A DNA stretch of 64,000 nt from Candidatus Moraniibacteriota bacterium (GTDB lineage: Bacteria > Patescibacteriota > Minisyncoccia > Moranbacterales > UBA1568): assembly GCA_016699425.1 (NCBI GenBank), contig CP064975.1, positions 789,698-853,697 on the forward strand, read 5' to 3'. Made by a program: the position numbers and the translations under genes. The notes under the pieces were generated by a model, which searched no databases, had not been told where the DNA came from, and saw only the letters and a program-made list of their open reading frames with translations. Shown here piece by piece: positions 52,112 to 64,000 of this stretch. Numbering within the stretch: the first letter of the stretch is position 1; every line of letters begins with the position of its first letter.

Positions 52112-52342
52112 TTACATCGCCGACGCTGAGCTTTCAGACGCACACATGCGGCAATTCGCCTTGTGTGTCGCGAGCTCAAAGATCGCTGACGCACCGACGA
52201 GCACATATACCACCTTGGCAAGCATCGATGACATACCACCGAGGAGACTGGCGACGAGATCTGTCTCGAGCAATCCGACCGAGAGCCAGTTCAGCCCACC
52301 CACGACCAAGAGCAAAAACGCGACCATGTGAAGTTGTTTCAT
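52112..52342 (-). CDS. DUF378 family membrane protein
   Basis: VGGLNWLSVGL...YVLVGASAIFEL. Confidence 0.7.
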   Translation of the reverse strand: MKQLHMVAFLLLVVGGLNWLSVGLLETDLVASLLGGMSSMLAKVVYVLVGASAIFELATHKANCRMCASESSASAM

Positions 52343-52470
52343 AAGAATAGTATTAGATTGAATAGGTCTAGTACGTAGAGACCGACCGAAGGCTAATCCC
52401 TCCCTACGCCCCTATTGTACTCCTGAAAACTTCCTTTTTGGATTTTCCGTCAAGCACAGTCCGAGAAAAG

Positions 52471-52752
52471 TTATTTCTGACTAATTGTTCCTCGCTCACC
52501 TTTTCGCAGAGAAATATCGACATCCAGCAGTGTATCTCCGAGGTTTTTTTCGAGCAACGGTTTTAGATCATCGAGCGCTTTATTGTAAACGGAGTTGCCC
52601 ACGACTTGCAGGAAGAAATCCAGAATGTTTCCAGCAGCAACGACTCCTATCTTCTCATTTCGTTCTTCAGCGAAATAAGCAATTATCTCATCGATAACCA
52701 AGCGACGCCTTGCATCCGACAACACATCCCAATCGCGTTTTACCTCACCCAT
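52471..52752 (-). CDS. DUF2164 family protein
   Basis: family-level resemblance of N-terminal region. Confidence 0.55.
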   Translation of the reverse strand: MGEVKRDWDVLSDARRRLVIDEIIAYFAEERNEKIGVVAAGNILDFFLQVVGNSVYNKALDDLKPLLEKNLGDTLLDVDISLRKGERGTISQK

Positions 52753-52791
52753 ATACCCTTTTCAACAACAAATCTGATTAGCGCACTACTT

Positions 52792-53442
52792 CTACTTCGG
52801 CATCTTCAGGACATCGACGACGCGCCCATTGATGACGAAGTTGTCATCCGGCGTGAGAAAAATCGGCTGATGACGTTTGTCCGTCGACTCCGGCATGAGC
52901 GCGATAGTCCGACCGTCGACCGAGCGATAGGTTTTTACGGTGGCGAGCCCGTCGATCACGACCAGCACGCGGTCCCCGCTCTTGTAGTCCTTCACATCGG
53001 CGTCGACGAGGATGAAGTCACCGTTCTGAATTGTTTTCCCATTCACCTTAGCTCGATTCATGGACGTCCCCGATACCTGAACGGCAAAGACATTGTGATC
53101 CTTCACGAGTCGCTTCGAAACACGGAGATACCCCTCGACATACTGGTCCGCAAACATGGTCGCTGCACCAGCACTCGCCGCACCAAAGACCGGAATCTGG
53201 ACAAAGTTATCCGAGCTCACACCCTTCAGGAGGATACCCCGGTCCTCGCTCGTCCGCTCAATATAGCCCTTATTCTCGAGCGCATTCAGATAGAGGAAGA
53301 AACTTCTCAGACTTTTCAGATTGAGCCCGAGCTTGCCGCTCTCTTCTTTGATTTCACGCACGGTCGGCATTTCGCCGTGCTCGGTGAAGAACTGCTTGAT
53401 CGCCTGGAGCACAATCCGCTGCTTTTGGGTGAGGATTTCCAT
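52792..53442 (-). CDS. lexA: LexA repressor (wHTH + S24 peptidase)
   Basis: MEILTQKQRIVLQAIK wHTH; cleavage AG, Ser in VSGTSM, Lys in KVNGK; ATG 53442; TTGACA-N16-TATACT upstream (53471-53498, minus strand). Confidence 0.85.
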   Translation of the reverse strand: MEILTQKQRIVLQAIKQFFTEHGEMPTVREIKEESGKLGLNLKSLRSFFLYLNALENKGYIERTSEDRGILLKGVSSDNFVQIPVFGAASAGAATMFADQYVEGYLRVSKRLVKDHNVFAVQVSGTSMNRAKVNGKTIQNGDFILVDADVKDYKSGDRVLVVIDGLATVKTYRSVDGRTIALMPESTDKRHQPIFLTPDDNFVINGRVVDVLKMPK

Positions 53443-53509
53443 ATGTTTGTTTACTCTACTTACACTATAGAGTATACAACTGGTTCGGAGGGTGTCAACT
53501 GTCCAGAAT

Positions 53510-54373
53510 TTAGAACAACTCCCCCACCCAATCCGGACTAACGATCGTCTGGCCATCGGCGCGGAAGACAAGGTATGTCGCGGCCAGTGCCCTGGCAAGC
53601 GTCGGAAATTGCTCCGGCGGAGCGAAGAAGAGTCCCGAGGTCATGCAGTCGGCCGCCCATGCATCTGGTGCGACCGCCGCGCAGCCGACGACTGTCTCGA
53701 CGCTTTTCCGTGCGCCCATATCGACGAGGTGATGCCACTTCCCAAACCGCCGCCGGAAGCTGTCAGAAACAGCCAGTCCTCGGTTGCAAAGCTCGACGAT
53801 CCCTGCTGCGACATCGGGTTTCCCGGGATACTCGATCGCCACGCGCCATGGCTGGCCATCGGTCTTGGTCGTCGCAACCATATCGCCCCCTCCATCGACG
53901 ATGAAATGTCCGTACCCCGCGGTACGGATGAGATCGGCAATCCGATCGATACAGTACCCCTTGCCGATGCCACCGAGATCAAAGGCCACCGGACCATCAA
54001 GTGTGAGTACTTCACCGTCAATTGACCATATGGGCAATGCCTCGCCGTATTCGACTGGTCGCACACCTGACTGTGCACCATAGCCTGCACCCTCGAGCAC
54101 GCCACCGACAATCGGATCATAGACACCACCCGTCAGCTGGCGCAAAAGCGCGGCTCGTTCGAGGAGCCGGGCGAACTCTGATGAAACTGGGTAGCTGCCG
54201 GCGGCCACTTCACGATACGCATTCACTTCCGATCCCGGGAGAAAGCGCGAAAAGCGGGACTCGAAGTCCCGCGCATAGCCGATAATCGTTTCATCCAAAC
54301 GCTCTGGGAGAGACTCGGCATCGATCACGATCGACCAGGCCGTCCCCAGTCCCTGGAAATCGATTGTCTGCAT
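53510..54373 (-). CDS. apbE: FAD:protein FMN transferase (ApbE family), no signal peptide
   Basis: DLGGIGKGY and downstream ApbE blocks; N-terminus MQTIDFQGLGTAW lacks signal/lipobox. Confidence 0.8.
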   Translation of the reverse strand: MQTIDFQGLGTAWSIVIDAESLPERLDETIIGYARDFESRFSRFLPGSEVNAYREVAAGSYPVSSEFARLLERAALLRQLTGGVYDPIVGGVLEGAGYGAQSGVRPVEYGEALPIWSIDGEVLTLDGPVAFDLGGIGKGYCIDRIADLIRTAGYGHFIVDGGGDMVATTKTDGQPWRVAIEYPGKPDVAAGIVELCNRGLAVSDSFRRRFGKWHHLVDMGARKSVETVVGCAAVAPDAWAADCMTSGLFFAPPEQFPTLARALAATYLVFRADGQTIVSPDWVGELF

Positions 54374-54383
54374 TGCTTATCTG

Positions 54384-54818
54384 TTAGAGCTGGCTCTTCA
54401 GCTTGTCGATGACGCTATTGAACGCATCGGTTGTCATCGATGATTTGCCGATCCGGTCCACTGCTGTGAGTTCGGAAAGTTTCTTGCCCTTAATGACCGC
54501 TGCAAGTCCCTGGGCGAACTCGATCTGATGCTCATCGGCTTCATTCGTCTCGACCGCTACTTCACGGACATCGGTGATGACACCTTCTGCATCCAGGACA
54601 AGCGTAAACCGCACACTGTCATACCCGTCATTCGGCACGGGGTAGCCCACCTCGGCACTCACCTCTCGCGGCTTATCAACAGCGACCTTGGTCACCGCTA
54701 TCGGCGTTTCCTCGGTGCGCGCGGCTGGGAGAAGCTTCAACGTGTACCGACAGTACACAAACGCCGTGAGCACGAGCACGACTGCGATAGCGATGATCCC
54801 CTTGGGTATCTTTTGCAT
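54384..54818 (-). CDS. membrane-anchored FMN-binding-domain-like protein, paralog of 19897..20394
   Basis: C-terminus AVDRIGKSSMTTDAFNSVIDKLKSQL aligns to FMN_bind consensus; N-terminal TM. Confidence 0.55.
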   Translation of the reverse strand: MQKIPKGIIAIAVVLVLTAFVYCRYTLKLLPAARTEETPIAVTKVAVDKPREVSAEVGYPVPNDGYDSVRFTLVLDAEGVITDVREVAVETNEADEHQIEFAQGLAAVIKGKKLSELTAVDRIGKSSMTTDAFNSVIDKLKSQL

Positions 54819-54930
54819 AGGTTTATTTTTTTCTTACACCCGAGAAAAGAAAAATCTCTCGAGATCTCTGCCTTTATGGTACCACAACAGGCTCTTTCTC
54901 CGCCAAGACCCAGCGTACATCTGTCGAACG

Positions 54931-55839
54931 TTACTTCCAATATACCTGAGACGTCGTCACGATTTCCTTCCACGGCCCGTCCGGCACGGCGTCCGCGACA
55001 ACAAAGCGCCAATCGACGATATCGATATCCTTCAGTCCCAGACACTGACTCGCAGCCGGGGAAAGGTCGAGACCGGCGTGCTTATTGGTCTTGCTCTCGG
55101 GAGTGGCTGTGCCAAAGACATAGGCGCTGTCGTTTTCCTTGAAGGGTCCCACGTCTTGCCACTGAGCGTAGCAGGTTTTCTCACCCTTGGTCACTTCGAT
55201 CCACCGGTTCTTGAGCATGGATTCATCATCCTTCCACGTCCGGTCCTTGGCCCAGGGGATGATCGAAGCAGCGTCTTTCTTACGCTTTCCCTTGGAATCG
55301 AAGTCATTGTACGGCAAAGCAAAATAGAATGGATTCTCCTGTGGCGTAAACTTGGCCGGGAAGTTGCCATTCCGTTTGTCCGGATCGTCTACACCCCCAA
55401 AATGTTTGACCCATTTCTCATCCCACGCACTCGGGAGATTGGAGATATCCTTATTGTCGTCCCCCGCCTCCTCGCCCACCCAGAAAAGTGTCGTCGTCAC
55501 ATCCTGATGGAGAGGGTACGGCGGGTCCTCTGCAACTGTGTCGTCTCCAATTCCTTCAGGTTTCGGCAGAGCCGTCTCGGCCGGTGTGACCAATGAGGGT
55601 GCCATCTCGACAGGACTCATGGGGGTGTCTATGTTCTCTTCCGTCAGCGTCTCTTCCGGTGTCGCGCTTCCAACGTTCGCTCCAACAGAAAGCACCGCTT
55701 CTCCTCCTTGAGGGGCTGTCTCACTCTCCGTATCTTCCGAACTCGAAATCTTTTTCCCGACAGCGACAAACGCGAGGGACGTCCCAATGATGATGGAACT
55801 CAACAACATGAGTACTCCCACGCGATGTAAACTTCTCAT
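54931..55839 (-). CDS. secreted protein with RlpA-like double-psi beta-barrel domain (putative)
   Basis: signal/TM then ...WIEVTKGEKTCYAQWQDVGPF...AGLDLSPAASQCLGL resembles DPBB/RlpA. Confidence 0.45.
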   Translation of the reverse strand: MRSLHRVGVLMLLSSIIIGTSLAFVAVGKKISSSEDTESETAPQGGEAVLSVGANVGSATPEETLTEENIDTPMSPVEMAPSLVTPAETALPKPEGIGDDTVAEDPPYPLHQDVTTTLFWVGEEAGDDNKDISNLPSAWDEKWVKHFGGVDDPDKRNGNFPAKFTPQENPFYFALPYNDFDSKGKRKKDAASIIPWAKDRTWKDDESMLKNRWIEVTKGEKTCYAQWQDVGPFKENDSAYVFGTATPESKTNKHAGLDLSPAASQCLGLKDIDIVDWRFVVADAVPDGPWKEIVTTSQVYWK

Positions 55840-56063
55840 GCAGTATTTTTAGTGTTTAGGGGAGACTGTTCTCTCCAGAACCTCTCAACATTCAAACAAA
55901 CACGCGGCCCATGAAACGGGCGGAAGGAACTCTATTGTACCAGTATAATCGGCGTCCGACAAAGTCCGCATATCCTACGCTGAGAGAGATATCCACTCCC
56001 CGCCACCGAGATAGAAAGTGCAGATCTGAGCGACAAAAAATCCCCTTGGCGGGGATAATTGGC

Positions 56064-56347
56064 ATCAGAGCTCTTGAGAGGAGAGGAAGGCGTGGTACTG
56101 CATCGTCTTCCTCTCGAATAGGTCGGCTAGACAGGAGCAGGACTCCCATACTAACCTCCCTCCAGTGCTAGCTGTACGGTGTTCGACCTCGCCCACCCCA
56201 TCCGTTTAGAGGAGGAAGTGAGGAAACCAAACCTCTCCATACCATTTTCCGAACGAAGACCCATTCGGTGCTGTCCAACTCACGCCAAGCGACGTGAGGG
56301 CACTGGAAGAACTGACTTAGAGAGCATGCTCTCTCAAGAATGCTGAT
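56064..56347 (+). other. noncoding unit bracketed by about 20-bp inverted repeats (ATCAGAGCTCTTGAGAGG ... GCTCTCTCAAGAATGCTGAT)
   Basis: same bracket sequences as units at 62666-62862 and 62880-63136; lies in 680-bp ORF-free divergent region. Confidence 0.35.
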
Positions 56348-56517
56348 GATCGAGAAAATATTCTCGAACTCCAGGGTAACAGACCATCGCCGATCGGTCA
56401 ATCCCGCAGGATTCTGACACCACCTAAAAAGCTGATACAATATCCTTGACTGAGAATACTGCAAGCCTGCGGAATAACCGGGTGTGTGATTTCTTCACTT
56501 ACATAATCAGCATCGAT

Positions 56518-57465
56518 ATGAATAAACCACTTGTCGTAGCCGGTGTTGTTCTTACCCTCTTCTCGCTCACCGCGCTCGCTCTCGCCTGGTGGTCAGCCTA
56601 TCGGGTGACACAAATACAGAAAACAATGAACACGGCTGACAAAAATCCAACACTCGATTCACACACGCCGTCAGGCGATGACTCACCCACACCTGTTCTT
56701 GATCAATCGCAAGATGCTCTGGTAATGACCAAGCCAATAACAGATGAAAAATATACTCTCGTAACGCTCGGTGACCTCTCGGTCAATCGGCAAGCCTACA
56801 ATGGCCACCCGATTGAAATCATCGACTATATGGACACGGGACCCCTTCCCTCACCCAATGGGACGAAAAAGTATACTGAGTACATCAAAATCCTCTCGCC
56901 AGATTATGTCCGAGGGCTTGACCTGGTCTATCCTCCATTCACGACCGATGATCCGGCTCGCTATGCCCGTGTGGCGCCGCTCTACCGCGGCGAGCAACGA
57001 GTGAGCATCAAGGGGAAATTTGTCATCGACCTCATGAAGACACCGACGCGTCCGATAGAAAACGACGTCATCGTGGTTGATCACTTCGACATTCTCCCCT
57101 TCCCAGAGCCGGAAAAGGGAGTGATCACGAAAGAAATTTTCTCCCAGATGATCGAGGATGGCACAATCGCATCGCTGAATCGGAAACGCATCACCTATGA
57201 AGGCGAGTACGGCTCCGGTTTCGAAGTGTCGCTCCTCGATAAACTGATTTGGGCGAACTTCATTGAAACCGAAATGGGCAATGCCGTCGATGAACTCGAA
57301 CGATTCATGCGTACTCACTCCGAAATGAAGAAAGAAGATGGGCAAATGAAGTCCAAAGTCCGAGTCACCGGTGTGCTCTATGCCACCCCCGGACAGCGTT
57401 ATGGCCACCTCGGACGCACCCTATATCAGATGATGGTCGACACGGTTGTTTTCCTCGAACAGTAA
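56518..57465 (+). CDS. membrane-anchored hypothetical protein
   Basis: start at MNKPLVVAGVVLTLF (56518). Confidence 0.55.
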   Translation: MNKPLVVAGVVLTLFSLTALALAWWSAYRVTQIQKTMNTADKNPTLDSHTPSGDDSPTPVLDQSQDALVMTKPITDEKYTLVTLGDLSVNRQAYNGHPIEIIDYMDTGPLPSPNGTKKYTEYIKILSPDYVRGLDLVYPPFTTDDPARYARVAPLYRGEQRVSIKGKFVIDLMKTPTRPIENDVIVVDHFDILPFPEPEKGVITKEIFSQMIEDGTIASLNRKRITYEGEYGSGFEVSLLDKLIWANFIETEMGNAVDELERFMRTHSEMKKEDGQMKSKVRVTGVLYATPGQRYGHLGRTLYQMMVDTVVFLEQ

Positions 57466-57684: not shown

Positions 57685-58413
57685 TCATGTGGACGCATTC
57701 AGCATGCGCTGCGCCGCCATCCTGACCGCTGTCGGTAGCATCAGCCATTCATACGGCAGCACGATTTCCCGCAGCTTGAGCGCAGCCGCCCTGATGTCAT
57801 ATGTCCCATCGAGGACACCCTGCAACAGCGTAGACGGAATCTCCACTGCTCCCATCAGAAGTGGTGGACCATCGCCCGGTCTCTCCGTGACCTCATGGAC
57901 GGTCGGATAGGTGAAAAAACGGTCGCACCCGAGGCTTTTCTTGCCGCGCCGGATGTGATCGAGCTCCGCCTCGAGAACGTGCTCGTGCACCCGTAGGCCA
58001 TGCATCCCCTGACCCCCGTGAGCATCGATGTCTGCCGGGTGGATGTTGTACATTGGCAGCCCGCATATTGGATAGGCAATGGAGGAGTCAAATGGCACGA
58101 TCACATTGCAGCCAACAAGAAACACGAGGCGACATTGACGGGCCTGAGCTACCCTCGAAAGCTCATTGAGAAATCCGCGTTTTTCGTACGTATACTGAAA
58201 CGACGTACTCCCTACTTCGATGACTACGCTGGGATAGTCGAGATCATTCGCCTTTTCAATGCAACCCGCACCCGGTTTGGTACTCACGAGCACGATCTGC
58301 CCGACTTCCGGGATCTGACCGGCGTGATGAGCCTTCATGATGGAAAACATACCGGTACCATTGCCGGAGGCGATGACCATCAGGTTCACTTCGCCACTTG
58401 TACGCTTGGGCAT
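57685..58413 (-). CDS. formyltransferase family protein (PurN-like)
   Basis: VIASGNGTG N-terminal and NIHP...TVHEVTERPGDGP blocks. Confidence 0.55.
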   Translation of the reverse strand: MPKRTSGEVNLMVIASGNGTGMFSIMKAHHAGQIPEVGQIVLVSTKPGAGCIEKANDLDYPSVVIEVGSTSFQYTYEKRGFLNELSRVAQARQCRLVFLVGCNVIVPFDSSIAYPICGLPMYNIHPADIDAHGGQGMHGLRVHEHVLEAELDHIRRGKKSLGCDRFFTYPTVHEVTERPGDGPPLLMGAVEIPSTLLQGVLDGTYDIRAAALKLREIVLPYEWLMLPTAVRMAAQRMLNAST

Positions 58414-58577
58414 GGGAGCCCTCCTCTCTTGTAATCACAACACTCTATAAACCGGCCTCCCATGAGGAAGGCCACCAAAGAACTAGTCACCGAGTATCGC
58501 AAATTCGGACGTCCCAGTCAAATGGAAATCACCAAGGATCACATCCGATGCGGCTTTCTATTTTTTCCGAGCCGTAT

Positions 58578-58606
58578 TTGACGAGGGAACAAATGTTCCC
58601 TATAAT
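58578..58606 (+). promoter_or_regulatory. sigma70 promoter TTGACG-N17-TATAAT with embedded LexA (Cheo-type) box GGAACAAATGTTCC
   Basis: -35 58578-58583, -10 58601-58606, perfect inverted repeat GAAC-N4-GTTC at 58587-58598 between them. Confidence 0.55.
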
Positions 58607-58625
58607 CAGAGAAGGAAAACCACCT

Positions 58626-59198
58626 ATGGAAACAGCCACCGCCCTCGCCAAAATCCAAGCCTTCTATGAAAAGAGGTGGCGCATGCCGACCGTGCGCGAA
58701 GTCATGTCGCTCATCCGCACTCGATCGATGAAGCAGACAACCGCCCTCATCGAGGGACTCGTCGAGTCCGGTGCGATCGAACGCGACAAGAATGGCAAAC
58801 TCCTCCCGAGTCACCTCTTCGGCAGCATCCGTAAGCTCGGACTCGTCGAAGCTGGTTTCCCCTCGCCCGCCGAAGAGGAGCTCCTCGATACTCTGACGCT
58901 CGACGAGTGGCTCATCCGCCGGCGCGAAGCGACTTACATGCTCGAGATCAAGGGCGAATCGATGATCAATGCCGGTATCCGACCCGGCGACACCGCCCTC
59001 GTCGAACGCGGCCGCGAACCAAAACATGGTGACATCGTCATCGCAGAGGTCGACGGCAAGTGGACGATGAAGTACTACCACGTCGAGTCGCGAGGACGTA
59101 TCGCGCTCGTCCCAGCCAATCCGAAATTCCCGACCATCTACCCGCAAGAAGAACTCCACATTGAGGCAATCGTCACGGCCATCATCCGGAAATACTAA
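58626..59198 (+). CDS. second LexA-like repressor (wHTH + S24 peptidase)
   Basis: IKGESMINAGI (Ser) and KHGDIVIAEVDGKWTMKYY (Lys); start 58626 after AAGGA; 58593 alternative. Confidence 0.8.
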   Translation: METATALAKIQAFYEKRWRMPTVREVMSLIRTRSMKQTTALIEGLVESGAIERDKNGKLLPSHLFGSIRKLGLVEAGFPSPAEEELLDTLTLDEWLIRRREATYMLEIKGESMINAGIRPGDTALVERGREPKHGDIVIAEVDGKWTMKYYHVESRGRIALVPANPKFPTIYPQEELHIEAIVTAIIRKY

Positions 59199-59202
59199 CC
59201 CT

Positions 59203-60513
59203 ATGTCCGCCCCCATCGTTCTGGGGAGATTCCCCCGTGCCATCCTCCACATCGATGGTGATGCTTTTTTCGCGTCATGCGAGCAAGCAAGGAATCCCGA
59301 ACTCCGCGGAAAGCCGGTCATCTGCGGAGCCGAGCGCGGCATCGCCGCGTCGATGAGCTATGAAGCCAAAGCCAAGGGCGTCACCCGTGCCATGCGCCTC
59401 TTCGAAATAAAGAAACTCTGTCCGGACGCGGTCGTCCTCCCCTCCGACTACGAGACGTATTCGCTCCTCTCCAAACGCTTCTACGAAGTCGTCCGCCGCT
59501 ACACATCCGATGTCGAGGAATACGGCATCGACGAATGCTTTGCCGATATCACCGGTTTGCAGCGACCGCACAAGAAAAGCTATGCCGCGATTGCCGCAGC
59601 GATCCAGTCGGACCTCCAGCGCGAGCTCGGCTTCACCTTTTCCATCGGCCTCGCCTCGACCAAAGTCCTCGCCAAGATCGGCTCGAAGTGGGCGAAGCCC
59701 CATGGCCTGACCGCTATCCCGAACAAATATATCCACCGCTACCTCGAGACGCACCCCGCGGGAAATGTCTGGGGCATCGGTCCGCAGACGACCGCGCTCC
59801 TCCAGAAATTCGGTATTCATACCGCGCTCGACTTCGCCCACCGCGACGAAGCCTGGGTGAAACACTACTGCTCGAAACCGTTCCAAGAGATCTGGCACGA
59901 GCTCCGGGGAAAGAGCGTCATGCCGCTCGCGACCGCGCCACGGACCGACCACTCCTCGGTGCAAAAGATGAAGACCTTCACCCCGCCGTCAAACGACCCG
60001 CGCTTCGTCTTTGCCCAGCTCGCGAAAAACATCGAGAGCGCCTGCATGCGCGCGCGGCAGTACCGGCTCGAGGCCAAGCGGGTGTACATCCTGCTCCGGA
60101 CGCAATCGTTCGAGCATCACTCGACCGAGCTCACGCTCTCGCGGCCGACCAATTTCGCCCACGAACTCCTCGACATCGCCCGTCCGGCCTTCGCCGAACT
60201 CTTCCGCCCCGGCACCTTCTACCGCGCGACCATGGTCACGCTCGCCGAGCTCACCGTCCCCGAATCGCAGCCTGATCTCTTCGGTGGATCACTCCGAGTG
60301 GACAACTATCGCCGGCTCTACGAGGGCATCGACCAGGTCCGCGCCAAGTACGGCAAGCACACCATCCATTTCGGCTCGTCATTCATGGCGCACGACGGCG
60401 CACAGCACACGGGCGACCGCGCCGACACCCCCGAGCGCCAGCGCCATCTCCTCAAGGGCGAGACCAAACGCCGCCGCCTCGGCATCCCCATGTTCACCGC
60501 CGAACTCTCCTAA
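59203..60513 (+). CDS. dinB: Y-family DNA polymerase (DinB/UmuC-like)
   Basis: ILHIDGDAFFASCE and GIDECFADITG catalytic motifs; starts 4 nt after LexA-like stop. Confidence 0.85.
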   Translation: MSAPIVLGRFPRAILHIDGDAFFASCEQARNPELRGKPVICGAERGIAASMSYEAKAKGVTRAMRLFEIKKLCPDAVVLPSDYETYSLLSKRFYEVVRRYTSDVEEYGIDECFADITGLQRPHKKSYAAIAAAIQSDLQRELGFTFSIGLASTKVLAKIGSKWAKPHGLTAIPNKYIHRYLETHPAGNVWGIGPQTTALLQKFGIHTALDFAHRDEAWVKHYCSKPFQEIWHELRGKSVMPLATAPRTDHSSVQKMKTFTPPSNDPRFVFAQLAKNIESACMRARQYRLEAKRVYILLRTQSFEHHSTELTLSRPTNFAHELLDIARPAFAELFRPGTFYRATMVTLAELTVPESQPDLFGGSLRVDNYRRLYEGIDQVRAKYGKHTIHFGSSFMAHDGAQHTGDRADTPERQRHLLKGETKRRRLGIPMFTAELS

Positions 60514-60567: not shown

Positions 60568-61440
60568 TTAGCTTTTCTGAATCAAGCTAACTAGTGCTTT
60601 TACGGAGGACAGCTCTGGCTCCTCAATTTTTTTTGCGTCAATAATCCGCGGAGGTTTAGTATCGTCACTAAAAGTAACATAATAGTAATTGCCCCTATCT
60701 ATAATTCCATGACCAATTTCTTGAGAAGTTGCTGCTTTATATTTCCCTTCAATTGTTTTTTCTTTAATTACCTCAAAACGAACTTCATAATCTGAATCTC
60801 TCCTTTTCCCAAGCGGTGCATGGGAACCAATCCTGATAAGATGCCGCTGACCAACCTCCGTGAAAGGAATGAACTGCGATCCCCTCCCAAGGAGAAAGTT
60901 CCCCTGCTTGTAAGGATTAAGATTAAAGTTCACTAATTTTGAAACGCTTTTGGCCGCCTTTTTTGCCGACCTATCGACAATCCTTGTCTCCTCAGTGCTT
61001 TTTCCCTCCACCCAATGAAGATTAAATCCAAATCGAATTTTCTTTTTTTCTCTTAAGTAATCCTTCCATAATCCCTGATGCTTAACATCATAACCATCCC
61101 GAGTCTTCCATTTATCTTTGCCGAATGGTTTAGCCCACCTATATACGCTACTATTTGCGCTATCAACTACATACCTAGAATCACTAAGAACAGTAATCGA
61201 AGTAATTCCAAGTTGAGAGATTTCCTTGGTATTCCTATTTATCCACTTCAGCGCATTAACCAATGCCTGTAATTCCATCGCCCCACTTGTTCCGCCAGAA
61301 TAAGGAAACTTAATCTCCCTATTTGGTAGATTAAGAAACTTGGGATACACGACAAGCATCGCACATCCAACCATTTCACCTGGATTGGTGATTGCTGATC
61401 CGTCTATATAAATCACCAGTTCATCTTCGCTATCCAACAT
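60568..61440 (-). CDS. RNase H (type 1) domain protein with 140-aa uncharacterised C-terminal domain
   Basis: DEDD residues in IYIDGS / MELQAL / LSDSRY / IVDRSA; start at ATG 61440; AT-rich. Confidence 0.7.
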   Translation of the reverse strand: MLDSEDELVIYIDGSAITNPGEMVGCAMLVVYPKFLNLPNREIKFPYSGGTSGAMELQALVNALKWINRNTKEISQLGITSITVLSDSRYVVDSANSSVYRWAKPFGKDKWKTRDGYDVKHQGLWKDYLREKKKIRFGFNLHWVEGKSTEETRIVDRSAKKAAKSVSKLVNFNLNPYKQGNFLLGRGSQFIPFTEVGQRHLIRIGSHAPLGKRRDSDYEVRFEVIKEKTIEGKYKAATSQEIGHGIIDRGNYYYVTFSDDTKPPRIIDAKKIEEPELSSVKALVSLIQKS

Positions 61441-61463
61441 GTCGAGCCAATATAGTTTGGGAT

Positions 61464-61545
61464 GCACCAAGACGGGAATCGAACCCGTACGATCCAAAGA
61501 TCATCTTCTTGTAGAATTTCAAAAAAATTAGAAACTCTAGTAGGA
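61464..61545 (-). other. tRNA-like T-arm/acceptor fragment (GTACGGGTTCGATTCCCGTCTTGGTGC) plus long AT-rich hairpin; not a complete cloverleaf by eye
   Basis: perfect T-arm ACGGG-TTCGATT-CCCGT on minus strand; no matching 5' acceptor strand found. Confidence 0.3.
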
Positions 61546-61630
61546 AGATGTGTCTACCATTCCACCACTCGAGCAAAGCTTTTACCCATAATACTATCTC
61601 CAGCTAAATCAATATTAAGCAGAAAAAGAG

Positions 61631-62206
61631 TCAGGACAGTATCTTTTCGTTACGCTTTTGAAGTAAATATCCCGCTATACCTAAAATAATTGGCATGGCT
61701 AGTCCCATAATTACAATTGTATCCACTCGTTCATTTATTCGAACATACGCCCCTTCTAAATCCTCAACACTTTCATTCAAAACATCCTGTTTATCCTTCA
61801 ATGTTCTTGAGGTTATTGCCTTATCAGTATCATAAAGTATTGTCTCTTCGATTGAGTTCTGCCTTGCCTCCAAACCAGTTACTCGCTGATTTACCAAGGC
61901 AAGTGATGTGCCCTGGTTATTTTTCAGCACCTCCCGCAATGATAACAGCTCTTTCTCAAGAGCCAGGTTTTTCTTATTTAGATTTTCAATTTTTTCCAAG
62001 ATCTCATCCTTATTCCTTATCAAAGAGAATGGGAAACTATCAATTCTTGTCTGATAGAGTAGGTAGCCAATAGAAAGGACGGCGTAGACTATAGTGAGAC
62101 TGAGAACGAGACTCTGTTTTCTCTTCCTTCTTTCTTCTAAAGACTTCTGAAGAGCCAAGTACTCAGAGAAAGACTCAGATAGCTTTTTTTGTGAGGAATA
62201 GGCCAT
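61631..62206 (-). CDS. hypothetical coiled-coil membrane protein
   Basis: 2 TM helices flanking coiled-coil; AT-rich. Confidence 0.5.
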   Translation of the reverse strand: MAYSSQKKLSESFSEYLALQKSLEERRKRKQSLVLSLTIVYAVLSIGYLLYQTRIDSFPFSLIRNKDEILEKIENLNKKNLALEKELLSLREVLKNNQGTSLALVNQRVTGLEARQNSIEETILYDTDKAITSRTLKDKQDVLNESVEDLEGAYVRINERVDTIVIMGLAMPIILGIAGYLLQKRNEKILS

Positions 62207-62209
62207 ACC

Positions 62210-62416
62210 TTATTTCTTTGGGAAAGCTTCATCAATCGCTTCAGCAACAATATCGAGCTCCTTTTCCAGTTCAGTTGAAATCTCCTCCTCAGTAACAATT
62301 TTTTTTTCAATAAGGATCTTCTCTATTGCATTCAATCTCGCATTTCTCGCAAAATCAAAGGCCGATCTTGGACCAACCTTTGAATTTATTCTATCTAAAA
62401 ATTCTTGCAGCTTCAT
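62210..62416 (-). CDS. small hypothetical protein (68 aa)
   Basis: 3-nt gap to downstream ORF. Confidence 0.4.
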   Translation of the reverse strand: MKLQEFLDRINSKVGPRSAFDFARNARLNAIEKILIEKKIVTEEEISTELEKELDIVAEAIDEAFPKK

Positions 62417-62665
62417 ATCTTTTCTTTTGTGATAAAAACCCGGCCGAAACCGTGAGTCCTAAGTAACTTCCTTGTAGAGGGAAGATAGTCTAAAAACCTA
62501 GTTCGGTCAAGCATACAAAAAACCAGTCTTGCGACTGGTTTCGTGCCTTACACGGTATCAGAAGGAAATTCCTTGATCCTTGGATATTCGTGCGGAGAGT
62601 GCTGATCATATAAAGTGGGACCTCTTCACGGAGTCGCCCACCAAAGGGCTGTCCCACCGACAATA

Positions 62666-63136
62666 ATCAATACTCTTGAGAGAGAAGAAGTCTGGGTGTG
62701 ACCATGACTTCTCCGAGGAAGAAAAAGTCCGACGAGAGCAAGCGGCGCAGAGGGTAACGCGTCGCAGGTGGAGGAGAACGGAGAAGCTCTTCGTCGGCCC
62801 TGACGACACTGGATGCCAGGGGAAATTTTCAGGAGCGCATTCGCTCTCTCAAGAGAACTGATATTCGATTGTAAACTGCATCAATACTCTTGAGAGAGAA
62901 GGAATCGAAGCGGTTGCGACGATTCCCTCTCGAGTGGGTTGCCGATCACAGATTGCCTGCGACCGGGCCCCCGGCGCCTTGCCCGCAGATACCGGGAAGT
63001 ATGCTGCAAGCCTCAGTCTGCCCGAGAGTGGTAGGGTCCCCCTGGGTTGGGGTGGTGAGAGGGACCGCTCGGAGCGACGACGACCTTGCGCCGGAAAGAA
63101 CAAAAGAGAACCCGAGGCTCTCTCAAGAATATTGAT
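62666..63136 (+). ncRNA. candidate structured RNA, possibly RNase P RNA (rnpB), built from two tandem inverted-repeat-bracketed units
   Basis: 5' TCAATACTC/TTGAGAGAG pairs with 3' CTCTCTCAA/GAATATTGA (P1/P2-like); P3-like hairpin GAAGTC..GACTTC; GAGGAAGAAAAAGTCCGAC (cf. GAGGAAAGUCCGGGC); GGGTAACGC; GGTGAGAGGGAC; AGAGAACCCGAGG before 3' stem (cf. ACAGAACCCGGCUUA); no credible ORFs. Confidence 0.35.
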
Positions 63137-63186
63137 CTGTGAAATAGCGTAGGGAGAGTATCGCAAATCCGGCTATCTAAGTCAAC

Positions 63187-63232
63187 AAAAAAAACCACCC
63201 AGGATCACTCCGAGGCGGCTTTCAATTTTTCC
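63187..63232. repeat. 46-nt terminator-like direct repeat B
   Basis: AAAAAAAACCACCCAGGATCACTCCGAGGCGGCTTTCAATTTTTCC, last 20 nt identical to repeat A. Confidence 0.5.
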
Positions 63233-63261
63233 GTATCCCGCGAACACGAGACGATCAAGCG

Positions 63262-64000
63262 CTATTTCCTCCCAATCAGAAGCATGACCAACTTCACCAT
63301 TTTTTCCTTGTCTCTCGGATGGCTTTCAGCAATGAGGAGCGTGATCGCCGTGAGCGCCTCGGGCGTAAGGCGTGTGGCATCGAGTAGCCGAGTCATGTTC
63401 AGAAACCACACGAAAGCATACGCACCCGTGCGTTTGTTCCCATCCACAAATGGATGATTTTTCACGATGAAATAGAGAAGATGCGCTGCCTTGGCTTCGA
63501 CACTCGGGTAGACATCTCGGCCACCGATCGCCTGCATCACATTTCCGACAATCCCCTCCAGTCCTTGTTTGCCCCGCTCCTGTGCGAACAGTTCTGTGGC
63601 TTCATGTTTCTTCAGTAGTTCGGCTTTCAGGATACTGACGGCCTCGGCCAATCGAGCGCCGGTCAAGATCACCTTCTTCTTTGTCGGCTTGGCAACATCA
63701 AACACCTCCCGGTCATAAGCATCGAGAGATACCCAGGTATCGGCAAACGATCGCACGAGCTCGAGGATACTCCCCGTATCGGTTTTCATCCCGGCTGGCA
63801 GCAAAGCCCTCACGTCAGCGACGGCTTGCGAGAACGCCTCATAATTCTTCCCGATCCGTGAACGATTGATAGTGTAACCCTCCACGAGATGACGGCGCAG
63901 CACACCGGTCGCCCACCTCCGAAACTGGGTCGCTTTCTTGGAATTAACACGGTAACCCACAGAAATGATCACATCCAGGTTGAAATACTCTACTTGGTAG
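63262..64000 (-). CDS. RhuM-family / Fic-DOC domain protein, 5'-partial (continues past window end)
   Basis: ...YQVEYFNLDVIISVGYRVNSKKATQFRRWAT RhuM core; HPFVDGNKRTGA Fic motif; frame open to position 64000. Confidence 0.75.
   Translation of the reverse strand, partial: YQVEYFNLDVIISVGYRVNSKKATQFRRWATGVLRRHLVEGYTINRSRIGKNYEAFSQAVADVRALLPAGMKTDTGSILELVRSFADTWVSLDAYDREVFDVAKPTKKKVILTGARLAEAVSILKAELLKKHEATELFAQERGKQGLEGIVGNVMQAIGGRDVYPSVEAKAAHLLYFIVKNHPFVDGNKRTGAYAFVWFLNMTRLLDATRLTPEALTAITLLIAESHPRDKEKMVKLVMLLIGRK

Follow-up and report, generated by a model that had tools for sequence, protein, structure and literature searches.

Bracketed units in a Moraniibacteriota genome as probable genes for structured RNAs with a common scaffold and variable payloads

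Large, ornate and covarying RNAs such as ROOL, GOLLD, OLE and raiA, whose functions are unknown, were found by comparative genomics and have strong promoters and terminators. Bacterial RNase P RNA (RF00010/RF00011) is a GC-rich multi-helix RNA of 200–400 nucleotides (nt) with a terminal helix and an adjacent hairpin. Y RNAs (YrlA/YrlB) combine a conserved helix of the 5' and 3' ends, which serves as a protein handle, with a variable second module, and their paralogues are sometimes arranged in tandem. Ribosomal RNA (rRNA) intervening sequences (IVS) and RNase III processing stems have an inverted-repeat terminal helix of about 20 base pairs (bp) within the rRNA primary transcript and interiors that vary between species. 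Correia/nemis, ERIC and other bacterial miniature inverted-repeat transposable elements (MITEs) also have terminal inverted repeats of about 20 bp, occur in multiple copies and can be co-transcribed; Correia elements are cut by RNase III. Here we analyse three bracketed units that resemble each of these systems in part. They lie in a 64,000-nt stretch of a Candidatus Moraniibacteriota genome (contig CP064975.1, positions 789,698 to 853,697), hereafter the window, from the candidate phyla radiation (CPR). CPR bacteria account for much of the diversity of bacteria, yet to our knowledge hardly anything has been learned about the non-coding RNAs that they make.

Two of the units stand in tandem and are read from the minus strand of the window, as are unit 3 and the promoters and terminators of all three: unit 1 (62666–62862, 197 nt) and unit 2 (62880–63136, 257 nt), separated by an AU-rich single-stranded linker of 17 nt (62863–62879). 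The 5' and 3' arms that bracket them are located at 62844–62862 and 62666–62684 in unit 1 and at 63118–63136 and 62880–62898 in unit 2. An earlier note on this DNA, made by a model from the letters alone, had described both bracketed units, and its account of the arms was confirmed: 62666–62687 and 62880–62901 are an exact 22-nt duplicate, which extends to 27 nt at 93%, and the complementary arms at the other ends match them at 89–95% over 19 nt. The 19-mer arm (at most 3 mismatches) was present in five copies in the window compared with 0.02 expected, and none of 100 shuffles equalled this number. The fifth copy (56329–56347) and a diverged partner arm at 56064, which the 19-mer search had missed, close unit 3 (56064–56347, 284 nt), which stands alone as a gene and has the bracket of units 1 and 2. 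Beyond these three units, the window contained no further arm or payload copies. The interiors of the three units, payload types A, B and C, respectively, are unrelated, and only the scaffold is common to them.

The RNA strand of the units is the minus strand of the window, and five independent lines of evidence agree on this. Position 8 of the closing helix P1 is a U·G pair in 21 of 22 units and C-G in the remaining one. Across the 20 outermost positions at either end, P1 included, the minus-strand reading of these 22 units gave 35 G·U pairs and only 7 A·C pairs; on the plus strand, the G·U pairs would be C·A mismatches. Folding pointed in the same direction, with z-scores of −5.58 (minus strand) versus −3.25 (plus strand) for unit 1, −7.26 versus −2.80 for unit 2 and −8.05 versus −3.76 for the whole region.

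The transcription signals have the same orientation. The array formed by units 1 and 2 is preceded by a sigma-70-type promoter (63185→63157; TTGACT, 17-nt spacer, GATACT, extended −10 TG), which ends 21 nt upstream of unit 2 and fits the lineage's own consensus TTGAC-N12-ATTTGSGATACT found ahead of protein genes. After unit 1 follow a conserved structured RNA (62539–62665), which we call the tail and which closes the 16S rRNA operon in relatives, and an intrinsic terminator (62538→62515), consisting of the hairpin CCAGUCGCAAGACUGG and then UUUUUUGU. This terminator was read from the sequence and is absent from the output of the terminator scan; the same hairpin is present in five related loci. 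Unit 3 has a promoter-like site with a weak −10 (56373–56401; TTGACC, 17-nt spacer, TACCCT), likewise read from the sequence and not called by the consensus scan; its position is conserved in the related loci L020, L023 and L122. The unit 3 terminator (56032–56056), a 6-pair stem with a T-run, was detected by the terminator scan. The layout of promoter, unit and terminator, with either a promoter or 16S rRNA upstream, was repeated in each related locus. In L011, L047, L068 and L124, units are located approximately 210–430 nt downstream of the 16S rRNA gene on the same strand, and the 16S 3' end is also upstream of units in L026 and L078. Unit 3 and units in L023, L020, L122, L121, L125, L100, L168 and L187 are solitary genes at a distance from rRNA, each with a promoter and a terminator of its own.

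These relatives came from a scan with a degenerate arm pattern, which covered 185,579 species genomes and yielded at least 120 loci, and from a stricter arm pattern, which yielded 7 JGI metagenome loci, three of them (L121, L123 and L127) with one identical unit. Synteny-guided look-ups added two more type C relatives. In total, at least 24 distinct units from about 15 genomes (Moranbacteria-type metagenome-assembled genomes (MAGs) and metagenomes) were obtained. Among the matches listed, paired arms were present only in loci labelled Moranbacteria/Moraniibacteriota or 'uncultured Bdellovibrionales', and the single-arm matches among the at least 120 genome-collection loci and among the 39 viral-contig loci had no partner arm. 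No family members were found in viral contigs, phages or plasmids. As far as these scans show, the RNA family appears confined, among the matches listed, to Moranbacteria-type CPR bacteria. The public MAG labels conflict with each other, being 'uncultured Bdellovibrionales' for L011, L020/L078, L026, L031 and L047 and Moranbacteria/Moraniibacteriota for L023, L068, L092 and L100. Because some pairs of loci across the two labels have 90–95% identical flanks, and the RNA family is common to both, we regard the two as one clade, in which the 'Bdellovibrionales' labels look wrong.

Comparison of the units revealed a common scaffold. P1 is a 19-bp helix formed by the RNA's own 5' and 3' ends, with a near-invariant inner sequence; it is 96% paired over its 19 positions and has no bulge. 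Positions 9–13 and 15 are invariant; at each of positions 14, 16 and 17 a single unit departs from the others (two of the changes being compensatory, A-U to G-C), and positions 5 and 6 covary. Its 3' strand is contiguous with the 3' strand of P5, a purine/pyrimidine hairpin (approximately 62685–62714 in unit 1 and 62899–62932 in unit 2). This is the hairpin that the earlier note had seen beside the left bracket and taken for a P3-like element of RNase P RNA: the hairpin is real, but it is a helix of the minus-strand RNA. All units also contain the short joiner AUUCGAGAGG and the pyrimidine tract UUYCYUUCC, which leads into the helix closing the payload. Together, P1 and P5 were 90.9% paired, compared with 47–53% for slid partners, and contained 11 covarying pairs, a number that none of 500 shuffles equalled.

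From this scaffold branches a variable payload domain of 140–350 nt. Grouping of the interiors by nhmmer defined at least six recurrent types, namely A (window unit 1, L092 and L026a), B (window unit 2 and L124), C (window unit 3, L023 and L020), D (L011, L078 and L100), E (L125 and L126) and F (L026b and L047d), and left six singletons. The type C alignment contained six sequences: the three nhmmer members and, assigned to this type on the basis of structure and gene order, L122, L168 and L187. It comprised 95 pairs, which were 92.4% paired, and 22 of them covaried, compared with 9.1 in shuffles and 2–9 in slid controls. For type A, compensatory pairs were found in the consensus fold. L023 is 86.6% identical to window positions 52149–57464 across 5.4 kb, which marks the window as DNA of a Moranbacteria-type CPR bacterium. 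Units 1 and 2 are not parts of one RNA, since the type of unit 1 stands alone in L092 and that of unit 2 alone in L124; the fallback reading of the earlier note, two separate bracketed RNAs, was the one borne out.

The units share no Rfam homology with ROOL, GOLLD, OLE or raiA, which occur in other hosts and contexts and have one conserved architecture each, whereas here one scaffold carries many unrelated payloads. We know of no close precedent among bacterial RNAs for such an invariant scaffold with many unrelated but conserved payloads. The organisation of the loci is modular too. Tandem arrays contain two units in the window, two in L026 and four in L047, whose only common part is the scaffold; all other units are solitary. 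The AU-rich linkers of the arrays are of similar length (17 nt in the window, 17 nt in L026, 16 and 18 nt in L047). In 16S operons the order is leader–trailer processing stem, one unit, the conserved structured tail and the terminator, as in L124, where the type B unit stands alone after 16S. In L047 and L026 the tail directly follows 16S, and the array comes shortly after it as a transcription unit of its own. Among genomes with 90–95% identical flanks, the payload type found at the trailer site differs. The tail RNA has 41 predicted pairs, 12 of them with compensatory changes, and is 90–95% identical among six loci, whereas the 16S 3' segments of L011 and L124 are only 79% and 88% identical, respectively, to that of L068. 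The tail together with its terminator (62515–62665) had no match in Rfam.

Our preferred reading, which we hold with moderate confidence, is that each unit is a gene in its own right, whose product is a stable and highly structured non-coding RNA of the minus strand, built of a conserved scaffold and a variable payload, with P1 as the likely handle for double-strand-specific processing or for a protein. The primary transcripts would be either co-transcripts with 16S rRNA or arrays of two to four units with AU-rich linkers, and an RNase III-type double-strand-specific nuclease would cut at P1 to release single units. The invariant P1/P5 scaffold would then probably be a handle, common to all members, for protein binding or stability, and the type-specific function would lie in the payload. 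The location in or near the 16S operon suggests abundant, growth-coupled RNAs tied to ribosome or translation biology. The consensus-like promoters or co-transcription with 16S, in genomes that keep little that is dispensable, point to an undescribed ribonucleoprotein or RNA-processing system.

Several points weigh against this reading. With at least 24 distinct units only, payload covariation rests on 2–6 sequences per type. Each unit contains four occurrences of a GAGAG/CUCUC motif, and a local mimic of the 3' arm is retained in 20 of 22 units, so that two mutually exclusive registers of the junction are possible. Gene conversion among the copies, instead of a sequence-specific reader, could account for part of the invariance of P1. 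No RNA-binding or nuclease gene was found as a conserved neighbour when the open reading frames (ORFs) around the units of 17 loci, within about 4.5 kb, were clustered, and no 16S gene lies upstream of the array within the window, where a RhuM/Fic gene is located instead. Finally, RNase III processing, the protein handle and the link to the ribosome are all steps that we infer.

The units could also have no function of their own and be cis-acting spacers, that is, IVS-like modules for processing of the 16S transcript that provide RNase III entry sites and are degraded after excision. The position of many units in the 16S 3' trailer, just 3' of the leader–trailer processing stem, would fit such a role, as would the long perfect helix with AU-rich linkers on either side. 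However, several units far from rRNA stand alone as genes and have a promoter and a terminator each, the window array likewise starts from a promoter of its own, and large type-specific payloads kept by compensatory changes would be unexpected for spacers that are discarded. Unlike rRNA IVS, the units lie outside both mature 16S and its leader–trailer stem (16S matched the model end to end without insertion, with the units 3' of the stem), many of them stand alone, the helix sequence is invariant, and the interiors are conserved, covarying and branched. We therefore consider the spacer explanation rather unlikely.

A bolder proposal goes beyond our preferred reading of independent RNA genes, and we offer it tentatively, as something on the whole improbable: the bracket may serve the RNA genes of this CPR lineage as a universal module for docking and exchange. 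As RNA, it would be a sequence-specific handle for one protein, or would allow arm swapping among RNAs whose arms are all identical and complementary, and bring different payload RNAs into a common ribosome-biogenesis particle; as DNA, it would be a site for swapping payload cassettes at the 16S trailer in an integron-like manner. Where the trailer contains no unit, the tail is preceded by AAGAUUUUGAU in L047 (approximately 425–445) and by AAGACUUUGAU in L026 (reverse complement, approximately 245–265). Both resemble the last 11–13 nt of the 3' arm of a unit and may be scars of cassette loss.

The exchange of units at one site is also what could be expected of mobile DNA, and the earlier note had named MITE-like elements as an alternative. 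In that case, the units would be Correia- or ERIC-like MITEs or other mobile DNA, and the bracket a terminal inverted repeat recognised by a transposase. The inverted repeats are 19 bp long and occur in several copies per genome, and the 16S-trailer site holds different units between flanks that are 90–95% identical and is empty in L047 and L026. Against this, no target-site duplications were found at the flanks of the units inspected, and no transposase or recombinase was among the conserved neighbours. Interiors are unrelated within a genome, there are no near-identical copies, and each interior type has relatives with compensatory changes in other genomes. The asymmetry of the arms, with U in the 5' arm and G in the 3' arm, is consistent and gives a wobble pair in the minus-strand RNA only, so that it is specific to the strand, unlike in bacterial MITEs. 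Each copy has a promoter (or 16S) ahead of it and a terminator behind it, and neither phages nor plasmids yielded a match to the units. Accordingly, the MITE reading is quite unlikely, but a mobile-DNA component might still contribute to the exchange of cassettes.

Another conceivable role is that of Y-RNA-like scaffolds, in which a Ro/Rsr-type protein, or another protein of RNA surveillance, would dock on the terminal helix and partners would be brought in through the variable module. The logic is similar: the 5' and 3' ends form a conserved helix, the second module varies, and paralogues are sometimes in tandem. However, neither Y_RNA nor YrlA matched in Rfam at any threshold, the perfect helix P1 lacks the bulge to which Ro binds, and Pfam scans of the neighbours examined revealed no TROVE-domain (rsr) or RtcB gene. 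In addition, the payloads are much larger than the modules of Y RNAs, and the sequence and structure of the units do not match them. This makes the Y-RNA reading very unlikely.

The earlier note had favoured a different identity, in which units 1 and 2 jointly form the organism's RNase P RNA on the plus strand and the bracket is P1/P2; a variant would give this role to just one of the units. The words GAGGAAGAAAAAGTCCGAC, GGGTAACGC and AGAGAACCCGAGG, which resemble conserved regions of RNase P RNA, are literally present, and rnpB was not found elsewhere in the 64-kb window, but these words are on the strand antisense to the RNA. We compared the whole window with the 4227 families of Rfam 15 by cmscan at the gathering score, and the region 62400–63400 on both strands at E≤10. 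Nothing in the window reached the gathering score, and the permissive scan returned only four chance matches (microRNA, long non-coding RNA and untranslated-region models, at most 17 bits). None of the models named in the earlier note (RNase P, 6S, signal recognition particle and transfer-messenger RNA (tmRNA)) matched this region on either strand at E≤10; for RNase P this holds for the bact_a, bact_b, archaeal and type T models, none of which matched the related loci with larger units either. Rfam scans of 15 related loci, the larger units included, at gathering and permissive E-values detected 16S rRNA only, unit 3 had no Rfam match, and ARAGORN found no tRNA, tmRNA or permuted tmRNA. Read as RNA, the plus strand would fold less well, with a C·A mismatch conserved in P1 and numerous A·C mismatches in other places, and the promoters, the terminators and the co-orientation with 16S indicate the minus strand. 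The AAAGUCCG-like word is on the plus strand, whereas the RNA strand is minus; no partner of P4 in conserved region V was found, and the P4 pseudoknot signature is missing. RNase P RNA would be expected as one gene spanning the region, whereas the window has three units, relatives have single ones, and genomes contain many paralogous types. An RNase P identity is hardly credible, and our analysis corrects what would be a tempting mis-annotation as rnpB.

The same can be said of the idea that the units encode small proteins: some are stop-free throughout (unit 2, sense frame 0, 85 codons), but the frames are broken in relatives of the same type (3 stops in L124, where the longest stop-free sense-strand frame has 58 of 84 codons, and 3 stops in L100), unit lengths differ by non-multiples of 3, and the substitutions are of a base-pair-preserving kind. 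The statement that the units have no credible ORFs holds in substance: stop-free frames exist in these GC-rich units, but none is open across the relatives of any payload type. We conclude that both the RNase P and the coding identity of the units are effectively excluded.

Some further candidates were rejected. TIGR-Tas arrays of parasitic bacteria are unrelated, being described as arrays processed into 36-nt guide RNAs. A hammerhead-like CUGAUGA beside unit 3 did not fit the stem II/GAAA geometry by eye, the motif is not in the other units, and Rfam was negative. Mimicry of the 16S 5' terminus (AGAGU-UUGAU) by the 3' arm of P1, or pairing of the 5' arm there, was a low-complexity coincidence, with 54% of shuffles scoring at least as high and a duplex z-score of about −1. 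A retron would have a reverse transcriptase gene immediately downstream of a non-coding RNA bracketed by a1/a2, but no reverse transcriptase was found among the window neighbours or the clustered neighbours of related loci. Keyword searching of the literature returned no description of the RNA family. With no Rfam 15 family, no phage or plasmid match and no literature description found, we regard the family as previously undescribed. Its 19-bp helix with the conserved U·G wobble provides a concrete, testable handle on it.

The clustered neighbours of the units were housekeeping genes only, among them those for ApbE, an FMN-binding protein, LexA-like proteins, a HAD hydrolase and a formyltransferase. 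Contig CAYLPD010000012.1, of which L020 and L078 are adjoining parts, has the gene order of the window: a type C unit, a 339-amino-acid (aa) protein, the formyltransferase and the trailer unit. There, 16S lies directly upstream of the trailer unit, whereas the window has the array promoter and the RhuM/Fic gene at this place. The RhuM/Fic-domain gene (63262–64000, minus strand) runs off the end of the window, where 16S would be expected from the gene order in L020/L078; judged by this order, it may be an insertion between 16S and the trailer RNAs. At its end, a terminator-like element (63175–63235) recurs at 82–95% identity in L011, L068 (twice), L092 and L020, and appears to be a clade-wide intergenic module.

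Directly after lineage-type promoters we also observed a conserved 5'-leader motif, CGGnnCyAGyUCUUUGG...CCAARG, in the window (58440–58520, minus strand), in L026 (260–271 and 1058–1069), in L047 (5122–5133) and in L068 (4412–4423). A formyltransferase-like gene lies downstream of this motif in the window and at one of its two places in L026, and the motif may be a cis-regulatory RNA. The region 60568–62416, which adjoins the RNA array, is low in GC (about 0.39 in 61001–62000, compared with about 0.54 in most of the window) and looks horizontally acquired; it contains a gene for a protein with an RNase H domain and additional sequence at the C-terminus (60568–61497), a 191-aa ORF and a 68-aa ORF. 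At 58398–60513, the gene for an S24 peptidase (LexA-like) overlaps a Y-family polymerase gene (IMS/IMS_C), an arrangement that resembles an SOS mutagenesis cassette. A second, canonical LexA adjoins ApbE at 52792–53598.
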